The notes beneath the pieces were generated by a model, which saw only the letters and a list, made by a program, of their open reading frames with translations, was not told the origin of the DNA and ran no database searches. From a virus (taxonomy: Duplodnaviria > Heunggongvirae > Uroviricota > Caudoviricetes), in the IMG/VR virus record IMGVR_UViG_2565956714_000004: a DNA stretch of 35,772 nucleotides; one strand, 5' to 3'. Below are positions 2,041 to 25,628 of the stretch, one piece after another. How positions within the stretch are numbered: the first letter of the stretch is position 1; each line of letters begins with the position of its first letter. The position numbers and the translations under genes are program-made.

Positions 2041-2069
2041 TTGACGATTTCACTGTGCGATCGTATGTT
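2041..2069 (+). promoter_or_regulatory. candidate early lytic promoter pR (-35 TTGACG, 17-bp spacer, -10 TATGTT)
   Basis: Sigma70-like hexamers with 17-bp spacing in the cI/apl intergenic region, oriented toward apl-cII. Confidence 0.4.
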
Positions 2070-3485: not shown

Positions 3486-3719
3486 ATGCGTAATATTGAA
3501 ACCCTCACGACCAAAACCGGACCGGATGATGCAGGTCTTAATCTTTTACTGACAGAGGCTCGTCTGGAAGAACGCCGGGCAAGGGCTGAAGCAATGGCTG
3601 CTCGCCTCGATAGCCTGGCGTGTCATATCACCTCCCGCCAGCTAAACCACGTCGAAGCGGCAGAACTGCTGCGTGTGACTGCTGAAGCAATCCAGAACGA
3701 AGCGCAGGAGATCCACTGA
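3486..3719 (+). CDS. hypothetical early protein, 77 aa
   Basis: ORF with AGGAG RBS upstream of ATG 3486; stop overlaps next start (TGATG). Confidence 0.45.
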   Translation: MRNIETLTTKTGPDDAGLNLLLTEARLEERRARAEAMAARLDSLACHITSRQLNHVEAAELLRVTAEAIQNEAQEIH

Positions 3720-3946
3720 TGGCTGATGCAATGGATCTCGTACAGCAGCGCGTTGAAGAAGAACGCCAACGCCATATCCGTGCTGCCCGTGCCAAAACGC
3801 CGGGCGTGTCCCGCGTGCTTTGCGTTGAGTGTGAAGCGCCAATTCCGCCAGCACGCCGCCGTGCCATTCCGGGTGTGCAGCTTTGCATTACCTGTCAGGA
3901 AATCGCAGAGCTGAAAGGCAAACATTACAACGGAGGTGCTGTATGA
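3719..3946 (+). CDS. TraR/DksA-family C4 zinc-finger protein
   Basis: 75 aa with CVEC...17 aa...CITC (C-x2-C / C-x2-C) typical of phage TraR/DksA-type zinc fingers; translationally coupled on both sides. Confidence 0.6.
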   Translation: MADAMDLVQQRVEEERQRHIRAARAKTPGVSRVLCVECEAPIPPARRRAIPGVQLCITCQEIAELKGKHYNGGAV

Positions 3947-4797
3947 GCACCATCCTGAAATGGGCAGGAAATAAAACCGCCATAATGTCCGAACTGAAAA
4001 AGCATCTTCCTGCTGGCCCGCGACTGGTTGAACCTTTCGCGGGTTCCTGTGCAGTGATGATGGAGACGGATTACCCCAGCTATCTTGTTGCGGATATTAA
4101 TCCTGATTTAATCAACCTCTATAAAAAGGTTGCTGCTGATTGTGAGTCGTTTATATCTCGTGCCAGAGCTTTATTTGAGGAAGCAAACAGGGAGGTGGCT
4201 TATTACAACATAAGGCAGGAGTTTAATTACTCCACTGAAATTACTGATTTCATGAAAGCGGTATATTTCCTGTATCTCAATCGTCACGGTTACCGTGGTT
4301 TATGTCGCTATAACAAGAGCGGGCATTTCAACATTCCCTACGGTAATTATAAAAATCCGTATTTCCCTGAAAAAGAAATTCGCGCATTTGCAGAGAAAGC
4401 CCAGCGGGCAACGTTTATCTGCGCCAGCTTTGATGAAACGCTGGCGATGTTGAAGGTGGGGGATGTGGTGTATTGCGATCCGCCTTATGACGGTACGTTT
4501 TCCGGCTATCACACTGATGGTTTCACTGAAGATGATCAGTATCACCTGGCATCTATTCTTGAACATCGGTCATCAGAAGGACATCCGGTCATTGTTTCTA
4601 ACAGTAACACGTCTTTGACCCGGTCCCTTTATCGTAATTTCACTCACCACTACATCAGGGCGAAACGCAGCATCGGCGTTGCAGCGGGGGAGGGAAAATT
4701 TGCAACAGAGATGATTGCCACTAAATCTGCTAATTGGTTTAGTGCCGATTTTAGTAGGGGACGTGACTCTACTGTTATTTTCGGGGTGCAAGTGTGA
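3943..4797 (+). CDS. dam: DNA adenine methyltransferase, Dam family
   Basis: N-terminal [11 protein letters not shown]-binding motif and downstream DPPY catalytic motif; start at ATG 3943 with GGAGG RBS. Confidence 0.85.
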
Positions 4798-5624
4798 AAG
4801 AAATGCACCACGGAATTCATCATTTCCATGGGACGCCTGTCTGGGGAAGTGCTGGCGACGTTCATCGTATTGCGGTGAGCGGAGCTGGCGCTTTCGTCTC
4901 CTATGTACGACCAGATCAGATTGCGGCGTCCATTCAGCACGCTCAGGTCGTCGGCATTGATAACGGCGCATTTTCTGCATGGGTGCGTGGGCTAAAAATT
5001 AACTGGAGTGATTTTTATAAATGGCTCCTGAACTATTACCACCATCCTAAGGTCGCTTTTTTTGTCATTCCTGATGTTGTGGACGGAGGTGAACGTGACA
5101 ATGATGCCCTGATAAACGAAGTTCCGAAAATGTTCTACGGGAAGGCAACTCCCGTCTGGCATCTGCACGAGTCAATCGAGCGGCTTATCGAGCTATGTCG
5201 TGAATGGCCTCGTGTCTGCTTTGGATCGTCTGGTGAATATGCGGCTATCAGAACTGCGCACTGGCATCGTCGTATGCAGGACGCTTTTGAAGCAATTTAT
5301 TGCCGACACAATTTCAAAACAGCTGTTCATGGTTTGCGCATGCTTGACGGTCGTGTGTTGGGAAATTACCCACTGGCGACTGCCGACAGTACAAATCTTG
5401 CCTGCAATGTCCCCAAATTTAATAGCAAATATCCTGAGCTGACGCGGGCTATTCAGGAGGCTGAGTATTCGCGCAATCTGACGGAAAAGGAGCTGAAAGC
5501 TGTCATTCTGAAAAACCGTTGCGCAATTTTAAAAGGTGCAATTGAAGCTGTTCGCCCACCTTCAGTTTCTGATTGGCTGTCGAATGGTTTGCAGCCTTCA
5601 CAGCTCGAACTGGAGATTGCGTAA
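4794..5624 (+). CDS. unknown protein with TGT (queuine tRNA-ribosyltransferase)/DpdA-like motifs, 276 aa
   Basis: GTG 4794 overlaps the dam stop (alternative ATG at 4803). HGTPVWGS near the N-terminus and VGIDNGAFS resemble the TGT substrate motifs (TP-F-PVGT and D-S-G-G-F-Q); no CxCxxC zinc motif. Assignment tentative. Confidence 0.45.
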
Positions 5625-7996
5625 TGAGCTACAGCTATTCCTGGAATGCTGAGAAAAAAGCAATCAATCCTTACGTAGAGACAGAAGAGCAATCTTCAGT
5701 TTCTGCGCTTTCAAACCTGATCGCTCTGTACGCTGCCGATAACGAGCAGGAACAGCTGCGCCGCGAGGCACTGAGTGATCAGGTCTGGGAGCGTTATTTC
5801 TTTAATGAATCCCGTGATCCTGTCCAGCGCGAAATGGAGCAGGATAAGCTCATTAGTCGGGCAAAGCTGGCGCATGAGCAGCAGCGTTTTAATCCAGATA
5901 TGGTCATTCTGGCGGACGTCAATGCCCAGCCTTCCCATATCAGCAAGCCGCTGATGCAACGTATTGAATACTTCAGCAGCCTGGGCAGGCCAAAGGCTTA
6001 TTCCCGCTATTTGCGTGAGACGATTAAGCCATGTCTGGAACGGCTGGAGCATGTACGCGACTGTCAGCTATCCACTTCTTTTCGCTTTATGGCAAGCCAT
6101 GAAGGGCTGGACGGCCTGCTGATCCTGCCTGAAATGAGTCAGGATCAGGTGAAACGCCTGTCCACCCTGGTAGCTGCGCATATGAGCATGTGCCTTGATG
6201 CAGCTTGTGGCGATTTGTATGTCACCGATGACGTTAAGCCAGAAGAAATCCGCAAGACATGGGAAAAGGTGGCAGCGGAAACCCTGCGTCTGGATGTCAT
6301 CCCGCCTGCGTTTGAGCAACTCCGCCGGAAAAGAAACCGCCGTAAACCCGTGCCCTATGAACTCATTCCGGGTTCGCTGGCGCGTATGTTGTGCGCTGAC
6401 TGGTGGTACCGGAAATTATGGAAGATGCGTTGCGAATGGCGGGAAGAGCAGTTGCGTGCTGTCTGCCTGGTCAGCAAAAAAGCATCTCCCTATGTCAGCT
6501 ATGAAGCCGTGATGCATAAACGTGAGCAGCGCCGTAAGTCGCTGGAGTTTTTTCGTTCTCATGAACTGGTGAACGAAGACGGCGACACGCTGGACATGGA
6601 GGATGTGGTAAACGCCAGCAGCAGCAACCCTGCGCATCGCCGCAATGAGATGATGGCCTGTGTTAAAGGCCTGGAGCTTATCGCGGAAATGCGCGGTGAC
6701 TGCGCCGTTTTCTACACCATCACCTGTCCGTCACGTTTCCATTCCACGCTAAATAATGGCAGGCCCAACCCAACTTGGACAAATGCGACGGTAAGACAAA
6801 GCAGTGATTATCTGGTCGGCATGTTTGCTGCATTTCGTAAGGCGATGCACAAAGCCGGATTGCGGTGGTATGGCGTGCGGGTGGCTGAGCCGCATCATGA
6901 CGGTACAGTTCACTGGCACCTGTTGTGTTTTATGCGCAAAAAAGACCGCCGCGCCATCACTGCATTACTGCGTAAGTTTGCCATCCGTGAAGACCGCGAG
7001 GAACTGGGCAATAACACTGGGCCGCGTTTTAAGTCTGAGTTGATTAACCCGCGCAAAGGTACGCCAACAAGCTACATCGCGAAATACATCAGTAAGAACA
7101 TTGACGGGCGTGGTCTGGCTGGCGAGATCAGCAAGGAAACGGGGAAATCCCTGCGTGATAATGCTGAATACGTTAATGCCTGGGCGTCTTTGCATCGTGT
7201 TCCGCAATTCCGCTTCTTTGGCATTCCGGGGCGTCAGGCTTACCGTGAACTGCGATTGCTGGCTGGTCAGGCGGCAAGGCAACAGGGGGACAAAAAAGCA
7301 GGTGCGCCGGTACTGGATAACCCGCGCCTTGATGCCATCCTGGCTGCTGCTGATGCTGGTTGTTTTGCCACCTACATCATGAAGCAGGGCGGCGTACTGG
7401 TTCCCCGCAAATATCACCTCATCAGAACCGCTTATGAAATCAACGAAGAGCCGACCGCCTATGGCGATCACGGCATTCGTATTTATGGCATCTGGTCACC
7501 TATTGCAGAGGGCAAGATCTGCACTCATGCCGTGAAGTGGAAAATGGTTCGTAAGGCCGTTGATGTTCAGGAGGCGGCAGCCGACCAGGGCGCTTGCGCC
7601 CCTTGGACTCGTGGCAATAACTGTCCCCTTGCTGAAAATTTGAACCAGCAGGAGAAAGATAAATCAGCTGATGGGGACACCAGAACGGACATTACCCGCA
7701 TGGATGACAAGGAGTTGCACGATTATCTGCACAGTATGAGCAAAAAAGAGCGCCGGGAACTGGCTGCAAGGTTACGCCTGGTTAAGCCGAAACGGCGTAA
7801 AGACTACAAACAGCGAATTACAGATCATCAGCGACAGCAGCTCGTCTATGAACTGAAGTCCAGAGGATTTGATGGCAGCGAGAAAGAGGTCGATTTACTC
7901 CTTCGCGGTGGCAGTATTCCGTCAGGAGCAGGCCTGCGTATCTTCTATCGGAACCAGCGTTTGCAGGAAGATGATAAGTGGCGGGATCTGTATTAA
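5624..7996 (+). CDS. A: replication initiator (gpA rolling-circle endonuclease)
   Basis: [15 protein letters not shown] (HUH metal-binding motif) and [14 protein letters not shown] (active-site Tyr region) match P2 gpA; start at ATG 5624 (TAATG overlap with upstream stop). Confidence 0.85.
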
Positions 7997-8147: not shown

Positions 8148-8336
8148 ATGCAGGACTATTTTTTGGAGTCTTTGAAGCTCCAGCGCATTGATTTTTTTCT
8201 TAAGCTTGTAGCGGCTAGTGAGTGTAGTGATGAAGAGAAGGGGCTGGCTTTGCAGTGGGTTTCTGAACTAACAGATGAACTCATGGCAAAAATCAGAACC
8301 CACGAATACAACCGCTCAATGGATGTCATCAGCTGA
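8148..8336 (+). CDS. small SOS-regulated protein, possible Tum-like antirepressor component (62 aa)
   Basis: ORF immediately downstream of LexA box with AGGAGG RBS; same position as the 186 tum locus. Confidence 0.45.
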   Translation: MQDYFLESLKLQRIDFFLKLVAASECSDEEKGLALQWVSELTDELMAKIRTHEYNRSMDVIS

Positions 8337-8346
8337 GGTGACTTTT

Positions 8347-8580
8347 ATGCGCATTGAAATAATGATCGATAAAGAGCAGAAGATTAGCCAGTCTACCCTG
8401 GACGCCCTTGAATCCGAGCTTTACCGCAATCTGCGCCCCCTGTATCCCAAAACGGTAATTCGTATCCGTAAAGGTAGCTCTAACGGTGTGGAACTGACTG
8501 GACTGCAACTGGACGAAGAAAGGAAGCAAGTGATGAAAATTATGCAGAAGGTGTGGGAAGACGACAGCTGGCTGCATTAA
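8347..8580 (+). CDS. DinI-family protein
   Basis: MRIEIMIDKEQ...LDALESELYRNL...KIMQKVWEDDSW follows the DinI pattern (MRIEV ... W-x-D-W C-terminus); RBS GAGGTG. Confidence 0.7.
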   Translation: MRIEIMIDKEQKISQSTLDALESELYRNLRPLYPKTVIRIRKGSSNGVELTGLQLDEERKQVMKIMQKVWEDDSWLH

Positions 8581-8958: not shown

Positions 8959-9654
8959 ATGGAATTATTATTTCAAAATTACCAAGCATCATATTTTACA
9001 AACAATTCTGATGTCACTGCTACACCGCCAGTGCTTTCGATGCTGTTGTCTAATTTGGCTGCGTTATCCCTTTTACCCATGTTTGGGCAGGAGTTGAATG
9101 CTTTAACAGGGGAAAAGCGTCAAATAGTTATTATGACTTCGCCTGACCAAAATTTTCGGGTTGAATTTCCCTTGGGGGCTATTGTCTTTCATGGAGTCGG
9201 CGGTTCCAGTGAAGAGTTCATAAATAAAGTTAAAGATATTATGAAGTCTTTACAGTCAATATTCCCTAATAAAAAAGCGACAAGACTGTCAGTTATTAAT
9301 TCATATTTTTATCATGATAGTCAGGATAATTACTCCAGGCTTTACAGAGAGCTATTCACTCATCGTAATGCAGAACCATTTGAATGGGATAATCGTATTG
9401 TTGAGCGAGTCAATTTGAAAAATTTAAATGAGAGTGTGAATAGTGGGAGTACTGTTCGTCGTTGTTTCATTCAGACTCCATTAGTAAATAATAATCATCC
9501 AACAGAAGTAATAAACTTTGAGGTGGATACAAATACATTGGCAGAAAATAATTCGCTTCGGTTTGATTTTAATTCTGCGAACTCTATTGTTAGTGAGTTG
9601 CAAGAAAATAATGCCAATTTAATTGAGCAATTATCTCGTTATACGAATAAGTGA
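8959..9654 (+). CDS. hypothetical protein, cargo operon gene 1 (231 aa)
   Basis: Long ORF in strongly AT-rich DNA, AGGAGG RBS; no recognisable motifs. Confidence 0.6.
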   Translation: MELLFQNYQASYFTNNSDVTATPPVLSMLLSNLAALSLLPMFGQELNALTGEKRQIVIMTSPDQNFRVEFPLGAIVFHGVGGSSEEFINKVKDIMKSLQSIFPNKKATRLSVINSYFYHDSQDNYSRLYRELFTHRNAEPFEWDNRIVERVNLKNLNESVNSGSTVRRCFIQTPLVNNNHPTEVINFEVDTNTLAENNSLRFDFNSANSIVSELQENNANLIEQLSRYTNK

Positions 9655-9661
9655 GGCTGCC

Positions 9662-10321
9662 ATGGATAAAAATTATGGAAATATAATTTTGTCTGAGGCT
9701 TCGTCAGAAGTTAACACTATTATTAATGATAATAACTTTGACCGTTTTTTGGTTAACTCATCAGTATCTGATAACTCAAAAAAATTATCCTCTTATGTAG
9801 CTAACGATATTAGAATAAATTCAAATAAAACAGCAGTTCAAGCTGGCTCGTTTTTTTTGAAAAAAATTGATGATTCAAATAATTCTTTTGAAAGCATAGT
9901 CATTAAAAAACAAAAAATGACTATGAGTTTACTATTTTCAGAAGATTATGTTGAAGGTGAAATCACTAAGACTCAACTTTATCTTGAAGGCCTTTACAAA
10001 GAAAATTCATTTGTTTTTAGGGAGGTTTTTCAACGGGTTTGGTTAGACCTCTTTCGCAATAAAAATACGTATGAATTACGAAATTTCATATGTGTTGCAT
10101 CTTGCTTAGAATATGAAATTCTTGGTGATAAGGCTGATGCTATCATATTGGCTGCATCGGTTTATGATGATAAATATGTAAATGAAGCAGCTCTGCGTGC
10201 GGCAGAAGGATGGGGCAATCCACAACTTGCACTATATCTAAATGGAATAAGAGATTTTGGAATAAGTTGGTTGGATAATTATAAAAAATCTGTCATAGAC
10301 TATTTGGGACGCATGCAATGA
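9662..10321 (+). CDS. hypothetical protein, cargo operon gene 2 (219 aa)
   Basis: ORF starting 7 nt after gene 1 stop with GAGG RBS; AT-rich; no recognisable motifs. Confidence 0.6.
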   Translation: MDKNYGNIILSEASSEVNTIINDNNFDRFLVNSSVSDNSKKLSSYVANDIRINSNKTAVQAGSFFLKKIDDSNNSFESIVIKKQKMTMSLLFSEDYVEGEITKTQLYLEGLYKENSFVFREVFQRVWLDLFRNKNTYELRNFICVASCLEYEILGDKADAIILAASVYDDKYVNEAALRAAEGWGNPQLALYLNGIRDFGISWLDNYKKSVIDYLGRMQ

Positions 10322-10842
10322 GTTATTTGTTAAGAAAAATATCAATTGCAAAATGGGAACCTAACTTAACATTGCAGCCTGATAATTTTTCAGGCGATGC
10401 TATTACTGGGTGTACACGAACAAAGAATAATACTCTTTCTGTTTGGGCTTCAGATTCAATTGACTTTACCACAGAGGATGTCGAGAAAATCGTTGTTGCA
10501 TTAGCTACAACTATGTCCTCGCCTGATATCATTGATCTTATTTGGTTGGATGAGGACTGGCTTAGAGAAAATGGTGTTCAGATAGCTAACAATCCGGGGC
10601 AAAGTAAGTTTGAAGCTGTAAATCCTATGCATAGGGATTTAGTCGCTATTGACCATCGACAACTTGCAATAGTTGGACAACATATAGTAGAGCAATATAA
10701 TGCAAATCCTGAACTGTATTATAAGCGTTATTCTAGGCCAGAAATTATAGCTTTGGTTCATAAATGGTTGACAAAAAATAATACATTTAAGCTAGAGGAT
10801 TTGCATGAGAAATGGGTAAAGCCTCTTGATAAAATAAAATGA
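10318..10842 (+). CDS. hypothetical protein, cargo operon gene 3 (174 aa)
   Basis: ATGA start/stop overlap with gene 2 (translational coupling); AT-rich; no recognisable motifs. Confidence 0.6.
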   Translation: MSYLLRKISIAKWEPNLTLQPDNFSGDAITGCTRTKNNTLSVWASDSIDFTTEDVEKIVVALATTMSSPDIIDLIWLDEDWLRENGVQIANNPGQSKFEAVNPMHRDLVAIDHRQLAIVGQHIVEQYNANPELYYKRYSRPEIIALVHKWLTKNNTFKLEDLHEKWVKPLDKIK

Positions 10843-21508: not shown

Positions 21509-22106
21509 TCTGCTGCCACCGGGTTCAACGCCACTGGAGCGCCGACTGGCGCAAACCTCTAGCGGGATTTCTGATCTGCAGGTGTCACTGCGTGACTTGT
21601 GGAATCCGGCAACCTGTCCGGTCAGTTTCCTGCCTTATCTCGCCTGGGCGTTCTCTGTGGATCGCTGGGACGAGGGCTGGACAGAAAGCGTCAAACGCCA
21701 GGTAGTGAAGGATGCTTTTTATATTCATCAGCACAAAGGAACCACCAGTGCCGTACGGCGGGTGGTGGAGCCGTTCGGCTTCCTGATCCGCATTATTGAG
21801 TGGTGGCAGACCGGAGAAACACCGGGCACGTTTCGTCTGGACATTGGTGTGCAGGACCAGGGCATCACTGAAGATACCTATCTGGAACTTGAGCGATTGA
21901 TAAGCGATGCCAAACCATGTAGCCGTCACATGATCGGCATGTCCATCAATCTGCAGACCAGCGGTCCGCATTGGGTGGGAGCCGCCAGTTATCTTGGCGA
22001 AGAAATCACGATCTATCCGTATATCAACGAAACAATTATTTCCGGCGGCACCGCGCATGAAGGCGGGGCGGTCCATGTTATTGACACAATGAGAGTGAAT
22101 CCATGA
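21501..22106 (+). CDS. I: baseplate/tail protein I (gpI)
   Basis: 201 aa, overlaps J and H as in P2. Confidence 0.75.
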   Translation: MNSLLPPGSTPLERRLAQTSSGISDLQVSLRDLWNPATCPVSFLPYLAWAFSVDRWDEGWTESVKRQVVKDAFYIHQHKGTTSAVRRVVEPFGFLIRIIEWWQTGETPGTFRLDIGVQDQGITEDTYLELERLISDAKPCSRHMIGMSINLQTSGPHWVGAASYLGEEITIYPYINETIISGGTAHEGGAVHVIDTMRVNP

Positions 22107-23632
22107 GCACAAAATTTTATACCCTGCTGACGGATATTGGCGCGGCGAAACTTGCCAGCGCCGCCGCGCTCGGTGTGCCGCTAAAAATTACCCATATGGC
22201 GGTCGGCGATGGCGGCGGAACATTGCCAACGCCGAACGCAAAGCAGACAGCATTAGTAAATGAGAAACGCCGGGCTGCGCTGAATATGCTCTATATCGAC
22301 CCGCAGAACAGCAGCCAGATTATTGCTGAACAGGTGATCCCTGAAAACGAGGGCGGTTGGTGGATACGTGAAGTGGGCCTGTTTGATGAGTCCGGGGCAT
22401 TGATTGCCGTGGGCAACTGCCCGGAAAGCTATAAACCGCAACTGGCTGAAGGCAGCGGGCGTACCCAGACCGTGCGCATGGTGCTGATTACCAGCGGCAC
22501 GGACAATATCACCCTGAGAATCGACCCTGCCGTAGTGCTGGCAACCCGCAAGTATGTGGATGACAAGGCACTGGAGCTGAAGGTGTACGCGGATGATCAG
22601 ATGGCAAAACATCTTGCCGCACCGGACCCGCATTCACAGTATGCACCCAAAGAAAGTCCGACGTTTACCGGGACACCCAAAGCGCCAACGCCAGCCGCAG
22701 GGAATAACACCACGCAGATTGCGACCACCGCGTTTGTTCAGGCGGCTCTGACGGCTCTTATTAATGGTGCGCCAGCCACGCTGGACACGCTGAAAGAAAT
22801 AGCCGCAGCCATTAACAATGATCCGAAATTCAGTACCACCATTAACAATGCGCTGGCACTGAAAGCGCCGCTGTCGAGTCCGGCACTCACCGGAACGCCA
22901 ACCGCACCTACTGCGGCACAGTCGGTCAACAATACACAGATTGCCACTACGGCTTTTGTGAAATCGGCGATTGCGGCAATGGTGGGTTCTGCACCTGCTG
23001 CACTGGATACACTGAACGAACTGGCGGCGGCGCTGGGAAATGACCCGAACTTTGCCACGACAATGGTGAATGCTCTGTCAGGTAAACAACCGCTGGACAA
23101 TACGCTGACTAATTTGAGTGGAAAGGATGTAGCTGGTCTTCTCACATACCTTGGTTTGGGAGAAGGCTCTGCATTACCTGTTGGTGTGCCTGTTCCATGG
23201 CCTTCAGCCACACCGCCAACAGGCTGGCTGAAATGCAACGGTGCGGCTTTTTCTGCTGAAGAATACCCGGAACTGGCAAAGGCTTATCCGACAAATAAAT
23301 TGCCTGATTTACGTGGTGAGTTTATTCGTGGCTGGGATGACGGGCGCGGTATTGATGCAGGACGTGTTTTATTGAGCATTCAGACAGGGATGCTGGAAAA
23401 ACACCGCCATATTGTTGTTGCCAATGATGGTTACGACACAAAAGATGAATGGGAACTGGCTACGATTTTCAAAAAGACATACACACAAGGACGGGGACTT
23501 GATGCCACAAATACAGGAGGGAGTCTGATCCCATCACCGACACTTCATTCACGAGGGAGTATCGGTAATACTGGCGGGAGTGAAACCCGTCCACGAAATA
23601 TTGCATTTAACTATATCGTGAGGGCTGCATAA
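22103..23632 (+). CDS. H: tail fiber protein H (constant N-terminus plus currently expressed variable C-terminus)
   Basis: 509 aa; N-terminus MSTKFYTLLTDIGAAKLA typical of P2 H; contains a hix/gix-like crossover site at 23139..23164. Confidence 0.85.
   Translation: MSTKFYTLLTDIGAAKLASAAALGVPLKITHMAVGDGGGTLPTPNAKQTALVNEKRRAALNMLYIDPQNSSQIIAEQVIPENEGGWWIREVGLFDESGALIAVGNCPESYKPQLAEGSGRTQTVRMVLITSGTDNITLRIDPAVVLATRKYVDDKALELKVYADDQMAKHLAAPDPHSQYAPKESPTFTGTPKAPTPAAGNNTTQIATTAFVQAALTALINGAPATLDTLKEIAAAINNDPKFSTTINNALALKAPLSSPALTGTPTAPTAAQSVNNTQIATTAFVKSAIAAMVGSAPAALDTLNELAAALGNDPNFATTMVNALSGKQPLDNTLTNLSGKDVAGLLTYLGLGEGSALPVGVPVPWPSATPPTGWLKCNGAAFSAEEYPELAKAYPTNKLPDLRGEFIRGWDDGRGIDAGRVLLSIQTGMLEKHRHIVVANDGYDTKDEWELATIFKKTYTQGRGLDATNTGGSLIPSPTLHSRGSIGNTGGSETRPRNIAFNYIVRAA
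23139..23164. repeat. invertase crossover site (hix/gix-like), left: TTCTCACATACC-TT-GGTTTGGGAGAA
   Basis: 26-bp imperfect palindrome with 2-bp core inside H; inverted copy at 24981..25006 shares GGTTTGGGAGAA. Confidence 0.7.
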
Positions 23633-24234
23633 TGGATAACGCCGTATTAAATAGCGAGCTTATTGCCACGAAGGCGGGGAATATTACCGTCTATAACTAT
23701 GATGGTAAAACTCGGGAATATATTTCTACTTCAAATGAATATCTTGCCATTGGTGTCGGTATCCCTGCATATTCCTGTCTGGATGAACCTGGTATACATA
23801 AGGCGGGTTATGCTATCTGCCGTTCGATGGATTTAAACTCATGGGAATATGTGCCAGACCATCGCGGTGAAATCGTCTATAACACCGAAACGGGAGACGC
23901 CAAAGAAATCACAGCTCCGGGTGATTATCCTGAAAATACAACCACTATCGCCCCGTTAACGCCATTCGATAAATGGGATGGTAAGAAATGGGTGACCGAT
24001 ACTGAGGCACAGCATAGCGCCGCAGTAGACGCGGCAGAAGTACAGCGTCAGTCACTGATTAATACTGCAATGGCTTCCATTAGTCTGATTCAACTTAAAT
24101 TGCAGGCCGGGCGGAAGCTGATGCAGGCAGAGACCACCCGACTTAACACTGTGCTGGATTACATTGACGCGGTGACGGCAACAGATACCAGCACAGCGCC
24201 GGATGTCATCTGGCCTGAACTGCCGGAGGCGTAG
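23632..24234 (+). CDS. G: tail fiber assembly protein (gpG/Tfa), currently expressed copy
   Basis: 200 aa; C-terminal LDYIDAV...DTS..PDV.WPELP typical of Tfa chaperones. Confidence 0.8.
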   Translation: MDNAVLNSELIATKAGNITVYNYDGKTREYISTSNEYLAIGVGIPAYSCLDEPGIHKAGYAICRSMDLNSWEYVPDHRGEIVYNTETGDAKEITAPGDYPENTTTIAPLTPFDKWDGKKWVTDTEAQHSAAVDAAEVQRQSLINTAMASISLIQLKLQAGRKLMQAETTRLNTVLDYIDAVTATDTSTAPDVIWPELPEA

Positions 24235-24643
24235 GCCATTCAATATCTGGCACACTGGAGGTATCAACCAGCTCCAGTGCGTCCAGGTAATCCAGCCACA
24301 AATTATATTGCGCCAGTTCCTCGTCTTTCAGACGACCAATAGCGGCTTTACCGGGCCATTGTTTACTGTTCATGTATTCGTTGGCCTGATTAAGCAATAA
24401 TTGCCTTTCTGATTCTGCCTGTTGAATAAGTTCTTCATGTGATGGTGGAGGTATTAGTGCCCATGTGGGTAATCCATTTTCTCCTGCAACACGAATTTTG
24501 CCATCTGGGGGCGTATTTATTGCAAATTCATTATAAACATCATCACTGACAGCCAGAGCATCATCTGGCCATGAATTTGCATTAATGTAATCATCCTTAA
24601 GTGCAGGATTCACAAAAATGTTTAAAGATGGACTATAAAACAT
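24206..24643 (-). CDS. alternative tail fiber assembly protein (Tfa') in invertible segment
   Basis: 145 aa with the same conserved C-terminal motif (WLDYLDAL...DTSSVPDIEWP); convergent with G. Confidence 0.75.
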   Translation of the reverse strand: MFYSPSLNIFVNPALKDDYINANSWPDDALAVSDDVYNEFAINTPPDGKIRVAGENGLPTWALIPPPSHEELIQQAESERQLLLNQANEYMNSKQWPGKAAIGRLKDEELAQYNLWLDYLDALELVDTSSVPDIEWPTPPAVQAR

Positions 24644-24644
24644 A

Positions 24645-24992
24645 TTACACCCCTATAGCGATATAACGACCTAATACAGCGTTTGCAGCAGTCGCTATGC
24701 TTGAAAAACCGCGGAACTGATTTGATGTAATTGCAGAAGCCGACAGGATTCCTGCACCTGAAGGTGTATGCCCCACATGACTAACTATCATTCCATAACA
24801 TGCTGACGGAAAGGCAAAAGGAAAATCATTAAGATATCCGGCATCTTCACCACCAGACCCACCAAATCTCGCCTGCCCCCACTGAATAATCAGTGTTCTC
24901 CGGGAACCTGAAATAATTAACGGAATCGTTACATACCCATTCAGACCAATGACACCCGATGCAGTGCCAGCCAGAGATAATTCTCCCAAACC
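24645..24992 (-). CDS. alternative tail fiber variable C-terminal segment (silent until inversion)
   Basis: Minus-strand frame encodes VGLGELS at the crossover site, paralleling LGLGEGS in H at the other site; no independent start expected. Confidence 0.65.
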   Translation of the reverse strand, partial: GLGELSLAGTASGVIGLNGYVTIPLIISGSRRTLIIQWGQARFGGSGGEDAGYLNDFPFAFPSACYGMIVSHVGHTPSGAGILSASAITSNQFRGFSSIATAANAVLGRYIAIGV

Positions 24993-25006
24993 AACGTTTA
25001 AGAAAA
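24981..25006. repeat. invertase crossover site, right: TTCTCCCAAACC-AA-CGTTTAAGAAAA
   Basis: Inverted copy of the site in H; 2-bp cores are complementary, as required for inversion. Confidence 0.7.
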
Positions 25007-25061
25007 TGCAGAGGTAACAGCTAACTGGCATCATCCCCGGTTTTTAGTCAGGGGGATAATC

Positions 25062-25628
25062 ATGCTTATTGGCTATGTACGCGTGTCAACAAATGACCAG
25101 AACACCGATTTGCAACGTAATGCACTGAACTGCGCGGGATGTGAGCGGATTTTTGAGGATAAAATCAGTGGCACTAAGTCCGACAGACCGGGGCTGAAAA
25201 AACTGCTCAGGACACTATCGGCAGGAGACACGCTGGTTGTCTGGAAGCTAGACAGGTTGGGGCGCAGTATGCGGCATCTTGTTACGCTGATAGAAGAGTT
25301 GCGTCAGCGTGGCGTGAATTTCCGAAGCCTGACTGACAGTATTGATACCAGCACCCCAATGGGCCGTTTCTTTTTTCATGTCATGGGAGCCCTGGCTGAA
25401 ATGGAACGCGAACTGATAGTTGAACGTACCAGGGCAGGGCTGGCTGCAGCTCGTGCCAAAGGCAGAGTAGGTGGACGCCGTCCTAAGTTGACCACTGAAC
25501 AGTGGGCACAGATTGGACGTTTACTCGAGGCCGGAGAATCAAGACAGCGTATTGCACTGATTTTTGATGTAGGCGTTTCTACCATTTATAGAAAATTTCC
25601 GGCAAATAAGAGCAATGAATCCCCCTGA
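25062..25628 (+). CDS. serine DNA invertase (Gin/Hin/Pin/Cin family)
   Basis: MLIGYVRVSTNDQNTDLQ (catalytic Ser motif) and C-terminal HTH GVSTIYRKF; 188 aa. Confidence 0.9.
   Translation: MLIGYVRVSTNDQNTDLQRNALNCAGCERIFEDKISGTKSDRPGLKKLLRTLSAGDTLVVWKLDRLGRSMRHLVTLIEELRQRGVNFRSLTDSIDTSTPMGRFFFHVMGALAEMERELIVERTRAGLAAARAKGRVGGRRPKLTTEQWAQIGRLLEAGESRQRIALIFDVGVSTIYRKFPANKSNESP

Follow-up and report, generated by a model that had tools for sequence, protein, structure and literature searches.

A DpdA-like gene between dam and gene A in the early operon of a P2-like Escherichia coli prophage: a likely DNA-guanine transglycosylase of the DpdA-only group

The DpdA1 enzymes of Escherichia phages CAjan and 9g have been shown by experiment to insert 7-cyano-7-deazaguanine (preQ0) into DNA, and the high-density modification of these phages leads to restriction resistance (PMC6884629). 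Other phages carry dpdA as their only gene of this kind, and the DpdA proteins listed for such "DpdA-only" phages include YP_009217891 (gp38) of phage SEN1, together with those of 7-11, HK106, SfI and BTP1 (Hutinet 2019 Supplementary Data 1, PMC6884629). The DNA of 7-11 contains dADG (2'-deoxy-7-amido-7-deazaguanosine) at 0.02% of G (PMC6884629), and that of Pantoea phage vB_PagS_MED16 at 0.13% of G (PMC8306585). The closest viral homologues of MED16 DpdA are SEN1 gp38 and SW9 gp39, and HHpred relates it to the tRNA-guanine transglycosylase (TGT) of T. maritima with 99.18% probability (PMC8306585). Here we examined a gene of the same kind, ORF276, in IMG/VR virus record IMGVR_UViG_2565956714_000004, a 35,772-nucleotide stretch of Caudoviricetes DNA (hereafter the window). 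We consider ORF276 likely to encode a DNA-guanine transglycosylase of DpdA type, from the DpdA-only group of phages, and to be carried as exchangeable cargo of the early operon, coupled to dam and gene A.

4794..5624, plus strand: ORF276, 276 aa, candidate DNA-guanine transglycosylase of the DpdA family (DpdA1, "DpdA-only" group)

The closest described relatives of ORF276 are SEN1 gp38 and SW9 gp39 of Salmonella P2-like phages, which are ~75% identical to it over their full length. There, too, the gene lies directly 5' of gene A and overlaps it, in a 186-like early operon without preQ0 genes; the upstream neighbour in SEN1 is a DUF5405 gene, whereas here it is dam. MED16 DpdA (gp38) is 54-57% identical and is likewise a singleton DpdA without preQ0 genes, in a genome that also has a same-strand adenine methyltransferase gene. 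However, MED16 is a lytic siphovirus, and its methyltransferase lies five genes off and belongs to another family. The DpdA of Salmonella phage 7-11 is 34-39% identical, is also DpdA-only and shares the invariant residues described below, but it comes from a large lytic phage and is shorter (234 aa), with part of the C-terminal helical region missing. The DpdA1 proteins of CAjan and 9g (Queuovirinae) have only ~20% identity to ORF276, are encoded within a FolE/QueD/QueE/QueC/YhhQ cluster and replace 25-32% of G, although their DxGAF, H, H and DS motifs align with those of ORF276 and neither has a zinc motif or a Pfam match. The core identification of an enzyme of this kind is not new, as the group has already been catalogued.

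ORF276 had no Pfam, NCBIfam or PADLOC match, the PADLOC models of the Dpd system included, and RefSeq calls it hypothetical. None of 77 diverse relatives matched a Pfam or NCBIfam model either, including PF01702 (TGT), and the validated CAjan-type DpdA proteins likewise have no Pfam domain on record. However, ORF276 matched PHROG 887 at 9e-97, and the validated CAjan DpdA matched the same family at 8e-96; PHROG 887 further takes in the DpdA proteins of 7-11 and MED16 and SEN1 gp38. When the profile of the 77-sequence family was aligned by hhalign with CAjan DpdA, the probability was 98.9% (E 3e-17), and the same probability was obtained with a 17-sequence DpdA1 profile (E 1.5e-17), in an alignment spanning residues 43-206. 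The family is large: databases contain over 4,000 members at E<=1e-3, and at 50% identity these form 555 clusters.

An AlphaFold2 model of ORF276 built on the family alignment gave an eight-stranded beta/alpha barrel with a predicted local distance difference test score (pLDDT) of 93.9 and a predicted template modelling score (pTM) of 0.90. The predicted fold is thus a TGT-like (beta/alpha)8 barrel. Comparison of the model with solved structures gave the following scores:

Cap10 (9NTN): 15.8
DNA preQ0 insertase DpdA (7UI4): 15.2
Archaeosine TGT (1IQ8): 14.6
Bacterial TGT (3UNT): 13.7

Foldseek was in agreement at ranks 1 and 2, but placed 7UI4 at rank 18. Among predicted viral structures the model had 33 matches at E<1e-3, of which the named ones were nearly all phage "queuine tRNA-ribosyltransferases".

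The earlier note on this DNA had proposed a TGT/DpdA-like protein, tentatively, from the segments HGTPVWGS and VGIDNGAFS and the lack of a CxCxxC zinc motif. Both segments are present, at residues 12 and 53, and the zinc motif was found in 0/77 family members and 0/17 CAjan-type DpdA1 proteins, whereas in E. coli TGT it is present as CDCYTC, at residue 302. D56, A59, D94, H123, H179, D198 and S199 are invariant in all 77 sequences and remain so in a set that also contains the fusion proteins described below and the DpdA of the dADG-bearing phages MED16 and 7-11. In the model they lie at or just past the C-terminal ends of strands 3, 4, 5, 7 and 8. In the hhalign alignment, D56-N-G-A-F60 falls on the invariant DSGAF of DpdA1 (D63), D198-S199 on CDSS (invariant D206), H123 on the invariant H132 (CFH) and H179 on the invariant His of KxH. 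Together with the PHROG 887 match, the profile alignments and the lack of the zinc motif, the invariant candidate catalytic Asp residues make the tentative assignment of the note well supported. The family profile gave no hhalign signal against the single E. coli TGT sequence, which precluded a residue-level mapping to TGT by sequence.

The active site of bacterial DpdA (bDpdA) consists of Asp95 (acid/base), Phe99, Asp130 and His181 (base edge) and Asp256 (nucleophile) (PMC10164549). By comparison of motifs, we propose D56 (DNGAF) as the acid/base, D198 (ADST) as the nucleophile and D94 and H123 as residues of base recognition, with H179 as a further catalytic candidate. Putative counterparts in bDpdA (PMC10164549) and Cap10 (bioRxiv 2025.04.06.647259) are listed below.

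D56 and F60 (N57 for Cap10): bDpdA Asp95 and Phe99; Cap10 D73 and S74
D94: bDpdA Asp130; Cap10 D122
H123: bDpdA His181; Cap10, none given
H179: bDpdA, none given; Cap10 H226
D198: bDpdA Asp256, nucleophile; Cap10 D248

The gene is intact in 105/5426 complete E. coli genomes, at >=99% identity in 102 of them. The ratio of nonsynonymous to synonymous substitution rates (dN/dS) was 0.05-0.11 across lineages, with dS saturated, and ORF276 is under strong purifying selection.

A search for genes of precursor synthesis, transport or partner proteins (FolE, QueC/D/E, YhhQ, DpdB/C and Cap9) found none in the annotated near-identical prophage of E. coli strain D9 or in the scanned open reading frames (ORFs) of the window. 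Since no precursor genes are linked to it, ORF276 was placed in the DpdA-only group.

The operon around ORF276 contains the following features:

3719..3946, plus strand: TraR/DksA-family C4 zinc-finger gene, 75 aa (PF01258 4e-11, TIGR02419 1.5e-18, PHROG 54)
3943..4797, plus strand: orphan Dam-family (D12-class) N6-adenine DNA methyltransferase, 284 aa (PF02086, TIGR00571, DPPY)
4794..4797, plus strand: GTGA overlap of the ORF276 start (GTG 4794-4796) with the dam stop (TGA 4795-4797), read directly
5622..5626, plus strand: TAATG overlap of the ORF276 stop (TAA) with the gene A start (ATG), read directly, with GGAG 8 nt 5' of the ATG
5624..7996, plus strand: gene A, which is the last large early-operon gene and encodes the replication initiator endonuclease gpA (PF05840 9e-128; "replication endonuclease" in RefSeq)

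The order TraR-like zinc finger, Dam, ORF276 and gene A is thus joined by three overlapping stop/start junctions (ATGA, GTGA and TAATG), as the earlier note had recorded for the first two. At the first, ATGA 3943-3946, the TGA of the zinc-finger gene overlaps the ATG of dam, which has GGAGG 7 nt upstream. This arrangement suggests that ORF276 is translationally coupled both to dam and to gene A. RefSeq annotation by the Prokaryotic Genome Annotation Pipeline (PGAP) instead starts the protein at ATG 4803, giving a 273-aa "hypothetical protein" (WP_001420002.1). However, in every motif-bearing locus among 80 related viral loci a start codon precedes the conserved H(F/Y)HG motif by 9 codons (range 5-10). 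In several lineages that start is ATG, and the dam-bearing lineages retain a GTGA, ATGA or TTGA overlap. Because the start position before H(F/Y)HG is kept, we accepted GTG 4794 and its 4-nt overlap over ATG 4803.

The product of the dam gene carries ILKWAGNK (residue 4) and DPPY (residue 179), motifs that the earlier note had named, and matched PF02086 at 2e-76 (257 bits, cut-off 22) and TIGR00571 at 5e-95 (318 bits, curated cut-off 115). It is 47% identical to E. coli Dam, retains the GLCRYN and FN(I/V)P(Y/F)G segments and is probably GATC-specific, although its 289 bits fall below the equivalog cut-off of 441 for NF008152. Its orphan status is indicated by the top PADLOC model ("orphan methyltransferase", 5e-110) and by its flanking genes, TraR and ORF276. 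The GATC count in the window is ordinary, at 116 observed vs 139 expected.

A weak candidate for the early lytic promoter is located in the gap that separates the rightward early genes from the leftward CI repressor gene (1447-2022, PF07022/PF16452):

2041..2069, plus strand: promoter-like site 5' of the rightward early operon, by consensus match only (TTGACG-17-TATGTT)

The promoter scan returned 3 such sites, one of them on the minus strand within dam, vs 8.0 expected by chance. Terminator-like hairpins in the operon were not above chance either (9 vs 7.2 in shuffled sequence), and a hairpin at 4752-4774, just 5' of the dam stop, was dropped as a cassette boundary signal because such sites occur at chance frequency.

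The window is a P2/186-like prophage whose host is Escherichia coli. Bases 3700-5700 are carried by 102/5426 complete E. coli genomes at 99.8% identity, the carrier strains include NCTC9113 and D9, and in D9 the near-identical prophage adjoins rcdA. There PGAP annotates, in order, integrase, CI, CII, Fil, DUF5347, DUF2732, TraR/DksA, DNA adenine methylase, a "hypothetical protein" and the replication endonuclease. Klebsiella P2-like phages such as KP12 and 4LV2017 have ~95% identity to most of the window from 1 to 24 kb, and comparison with them by blastn (KP12) delimited the segment that carries ORF276:

4719..5698, plus strand: exchange cassette relative to Klebsiella P2-like phages, comprising ~26 codons at the end of dam, the whole of ORF276 and ~25 codons at the start of gene A

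In KP12, dam overlaps gene A directly, without a DpdA gene between them; 195 nt (locus L003, 5020-5214) are replaced by 980 nt of the window, and both flanks have 95-96% homology. The boundaries of the cassette lie inside dam and gene A, and it was therefore transferred by homologous exchange among P2-like phages in which the order dam-dpdA-A was already established.

A scan of the genome contigs with the single protein gave no match; an alignment of closer sequences did identify related loci. All of the 80 IMG/VR loci whose homologues are at least 71% identical to ORF276 are P2-like, and in each locus with a recovered downstream flank the gene stands directly 5' of gene A. Upstream, its neighbour is Dam in ~51 loci, DUF5405 in ~22 and TraR directly in ~8. 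The linkage to Dam is therefore frequent but facultative, since homologues are also found behind DUF5405 or TraR. With these close homologues lacking Dam, and the Klebsiella relatives having Dam without DpdA, an obligate Dam-DpdA module is not supported.

As regards homology, fold and motifs, the identification of ORF276 is secure; its catalysis on DNA, the base inserted, the density of the mark and any protective role against host defences we infer. Several observations weigh against this reading. In sequence searches of the PDB, neither the single proteins ORF276 and CAjan DpdA nor the family and DpdA1 profiles reached a solved TGT or DpdA (weak matches to GCN4 and coat-protein entries were dismissed as chance). 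The hhalign alignment puts the conserved D105 of DpdA1 at ORF276 position 97 and not at the invariant D94, and the residues of ORF276 were matched to bDpdA and Cap10 from the order of the motifs and the distances between them. Bacterial DpdA, from the Dpd restriction-modification system of S. Montevideo (7UI4), is a 413-aa protein with insertions that requires the ATPase DpdB for activity and DpdC to make dADG (PMC10164549), and neither a DpdB-like partner (ParB-like ATPase) nor DpdC was found in the D9 prophage or the scanned window ORFs. Finally, the characterised DpdA-only phages are either sparsely modified (7-11 and MED16) or, in the case of Orion, whose host lacks the pathway, carry no modification, and MED16 DNA was digested by all G-site restriction enzymes tested (PMC8306585).

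If ORF276 is a DpdA-type transglycosylase, it would be expressed early. Upon induction or infection the early lytic operon would be transcribed, so that ORF276 is made along with Dam and gpA. By analogy with TGT and DpdA, the enzyme would flip a guanine out of duplex DNA, with D56 serving as general acid/base and D94 and H123 reading the base edge. A 7-deazaguanine base drawn from the queuosine pathway of the host (preQ0, possibly 7-amido-7-deazaguanine, ADG) would then resolve the intermediate. It is reasonable to suppose that the host could supply preQ0 to ORF276, and its deazaguanine pool may well be sufficient, because 9g dpdA expressed alone in E. coli yields 2'-deoxy-preQ0 (dPreQ0) at 0.03-0.3% of G (PMC6884629). 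The outcome would be a few dPreQ0 or dADG residues at specific motifs, expected by analogy with 7-11 and MED16 at ~3-22 sites (a handful to a few tens) per ~33-kb genome, while Dam would methylate GATC adenines in parallel.

The low densities in DpdA-only phages bear on two further proposals of the earlier note. "Hypermodification" of the DNA is not supported as written, given dADG at 0.02% (7-11) and 0.13% (MED16) of G and none in Orion, and a "double anti-restriction" strategy is not supported as written, since every G-site enzyme tested cut MED16 DNA. It is possible, though on balance doubtful, that ORF276 is active but that in this pair of phage and host its mark is too sparse to act against classical restriction, and that its role is instead that of a rare, site-specific mark evading or triggering one defence system, or of a self-label for replication or packaging. 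The same dADG densities and digestion results speak for this alternative, as does the consistent position of the homologues directly 5' of gene A. However, the high-density DpdA1 phages CAjan and 9g do gain restriction resistance, and the dispensability of the gene, which is absent in close Klebsiella relatives, argues against a core replication role. Such a role was rejected, as those relatives have a 96%-identical gene A without ORF276.

Members of the DpdA-like family also occur fused to other proteins. In a 577-aa protein of Rosenbergiella metrosideri (locus L012, 5977-7710), a DpdA-like domain is fused with a Dam domain of the D12 class. Another DpdA::Dam fusion, P0272 (575 aa; L106/L107, 6001-7728), has only 42% identity to the first and is encoded in a lambdoid-type prophage. 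Its neighbours there are a Vut_1/YhhQ-like transporter gene, which overlaps it, and a C5-methylase gene; the L106 locus is a compact DNA-modification island within the prophage. In P0274 the DpdA-like domain is fused to an MT-A70 methyltransferase, and in P0205 (L020, 2840-3847) QueD (PTPS) is fused to a DpdA-like domain. Vut_1 genes are also found beside the homologue of Flyfo siphovirus Tbat1_6 (61% identical) and beside the representative P0137 (43% identical), so that a Vut_1/YhhQ-like transporter is adjacent to homologues in three lineages altogether. These fusions and neighbours tie the ORF276 clade to a supply of 7-deazaguanine and to DNA as substrate, and provide independent genomic evidence that its members use a salvaged 7-deazaguanine base in acting on DNA. 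Neither the Dam, MT-A70 and QueD fusions nor the recurrent YhhQ-like neighbour is mentioned in Hutinet 2019 or Cui 2023; these associations are new, while the DpdA identification itself is not.

Three other apparent fusions were set aside. P0011 (Dam 1-192 joined to ORF276 48-276) is probably a deletion, frameshift or assembly chimera of near-identical E. coli sequence, and P0273 (ORF276 with gpA) and P0121 (the ORF276 N-terminus with baseplate GPD) are probably chimeras or frameshifts likewise.

Because the family has separately been joined to adenine methyltransferases at least three times (in the coupled operon, in DpdA::Dam of two lineages and in DpdA::MT-A70), we also considered that Dam and the DpdA-like enzyme are not independent cargo but cooperate as a module that places two marks. 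In that case guanine exchange might be directed or licensed by the methyltransferase, at its recognition site or beside it; the CAjan and iggy DpdA enzymes modify a GA context, and GATC contains GA. We regard such a module as improbable.

It is very unlikely that ORF276 works like Cap10 of type IV CBASS (cyclic oligonucleotide-based antiphage signalling system), binding or transferring a protein-linked 7-amido-7-deazaguanine or disturbing a deazaguanine-based host immunity, and does not modify phage DNA. Cap10 (9NTN_B) heads the structure comparison; it binds a deazaguanylated cGAS/DncV-like nucleotidyltransferase (CD-NTase) and works with the QueC-like Cap9. The likeness of ORF276 to Cap10 is structural only, and no gene for Cap9 or for a CD-NTase with the N-terminal G-rich tail was found in the D9 prophage or the scanned window ORFs; the neighbours are TraR, Dam and gpA.

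If ORF276 acted on tRNA as canonical TGT does, it would remodel tRNA of the host or the phage in the course of infection. Such an action would fit the TGT-like fold and the label "queuine tRNA-ribosyltransferase" that RefSeq and PHROG give to homologues, but we consider it most unlikely. Unlike bacterial TGT (PF01702), ORF276 lacks the CxCxxC zinc subdomain and is ~100 residues shorter, and PF01702 matches 0/77 of the family. In addition, 9g DpdA fails to complement an E. coli delta-tgt mutant, and family members are fused to DNA adenine methyltransferases.

That ORF276 is a decayed, inactive remnant riding with the dam-A cassette is scarcely credible, for although PGAP labels it hypothetical and frameshifted or chimeric database versions exist (P0011, P0273 and P0121), this view is largely refuted by the selection analysis, and the ORF is intact across E. 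coli genomes with its candidate catalytic residues all invariant.

Other parts of the window were also surveyed. Host genes (an Asp-Al_Ex permease and YbjM) extend from 33153 to its right end. At 25062-25628 there is a serine recombinase/invertase gene (PF00239 2e-53, with HTH_7), and beside it are the C-terminal module of an alternative tail fibre, on the minus strand (24645-25034, Gp53-like_C), and a gene for tail-fibre assembly (24206-24643). Upstream of this segment, on the plus strand, is a tail fibre gene (22103-23632) with its own assembly gene. The region 24206-25628 looks like a Gin/Cin-type invertible host-range switch.

Between a DinI-like gene (8275-8580) and the portal gene, three co-directional ORFs of 231, 232 and 174 aa occupy 8959-10842. 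They had no significant Pfam match (one HTH_70 match was sub-threshold) and no PADLOC match. The same slot in the D9 prophage holds other genes, namely two hypotheticals and a PIN-domain protein. This position is a hotspot of variable cargo, which may include defence genes.

The identification of ORF276 points to an annotation gap, as a family found in ~2% of complete E. coli genomes goes undetected by Pfam, NCBIfam and PADLOC. If Dam and the DpdA-like enzyme did form a two-mark module, the phage DNA would bear a composite mark of N6-methyladenine and 7-deazaguanine. DpdA-only enzymes may also insert ADG directly, which would explain the presence of dADG in phages that have no DpdC-like enzyme. 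An inducible P2-like prophage of E. coli, together with queC, queD, yhhQ and dam mutants, offers a convenient system for the function of DpdA-only enzymes and for the origin of dADG without DpdC (PMC6884629, PMC8306585).

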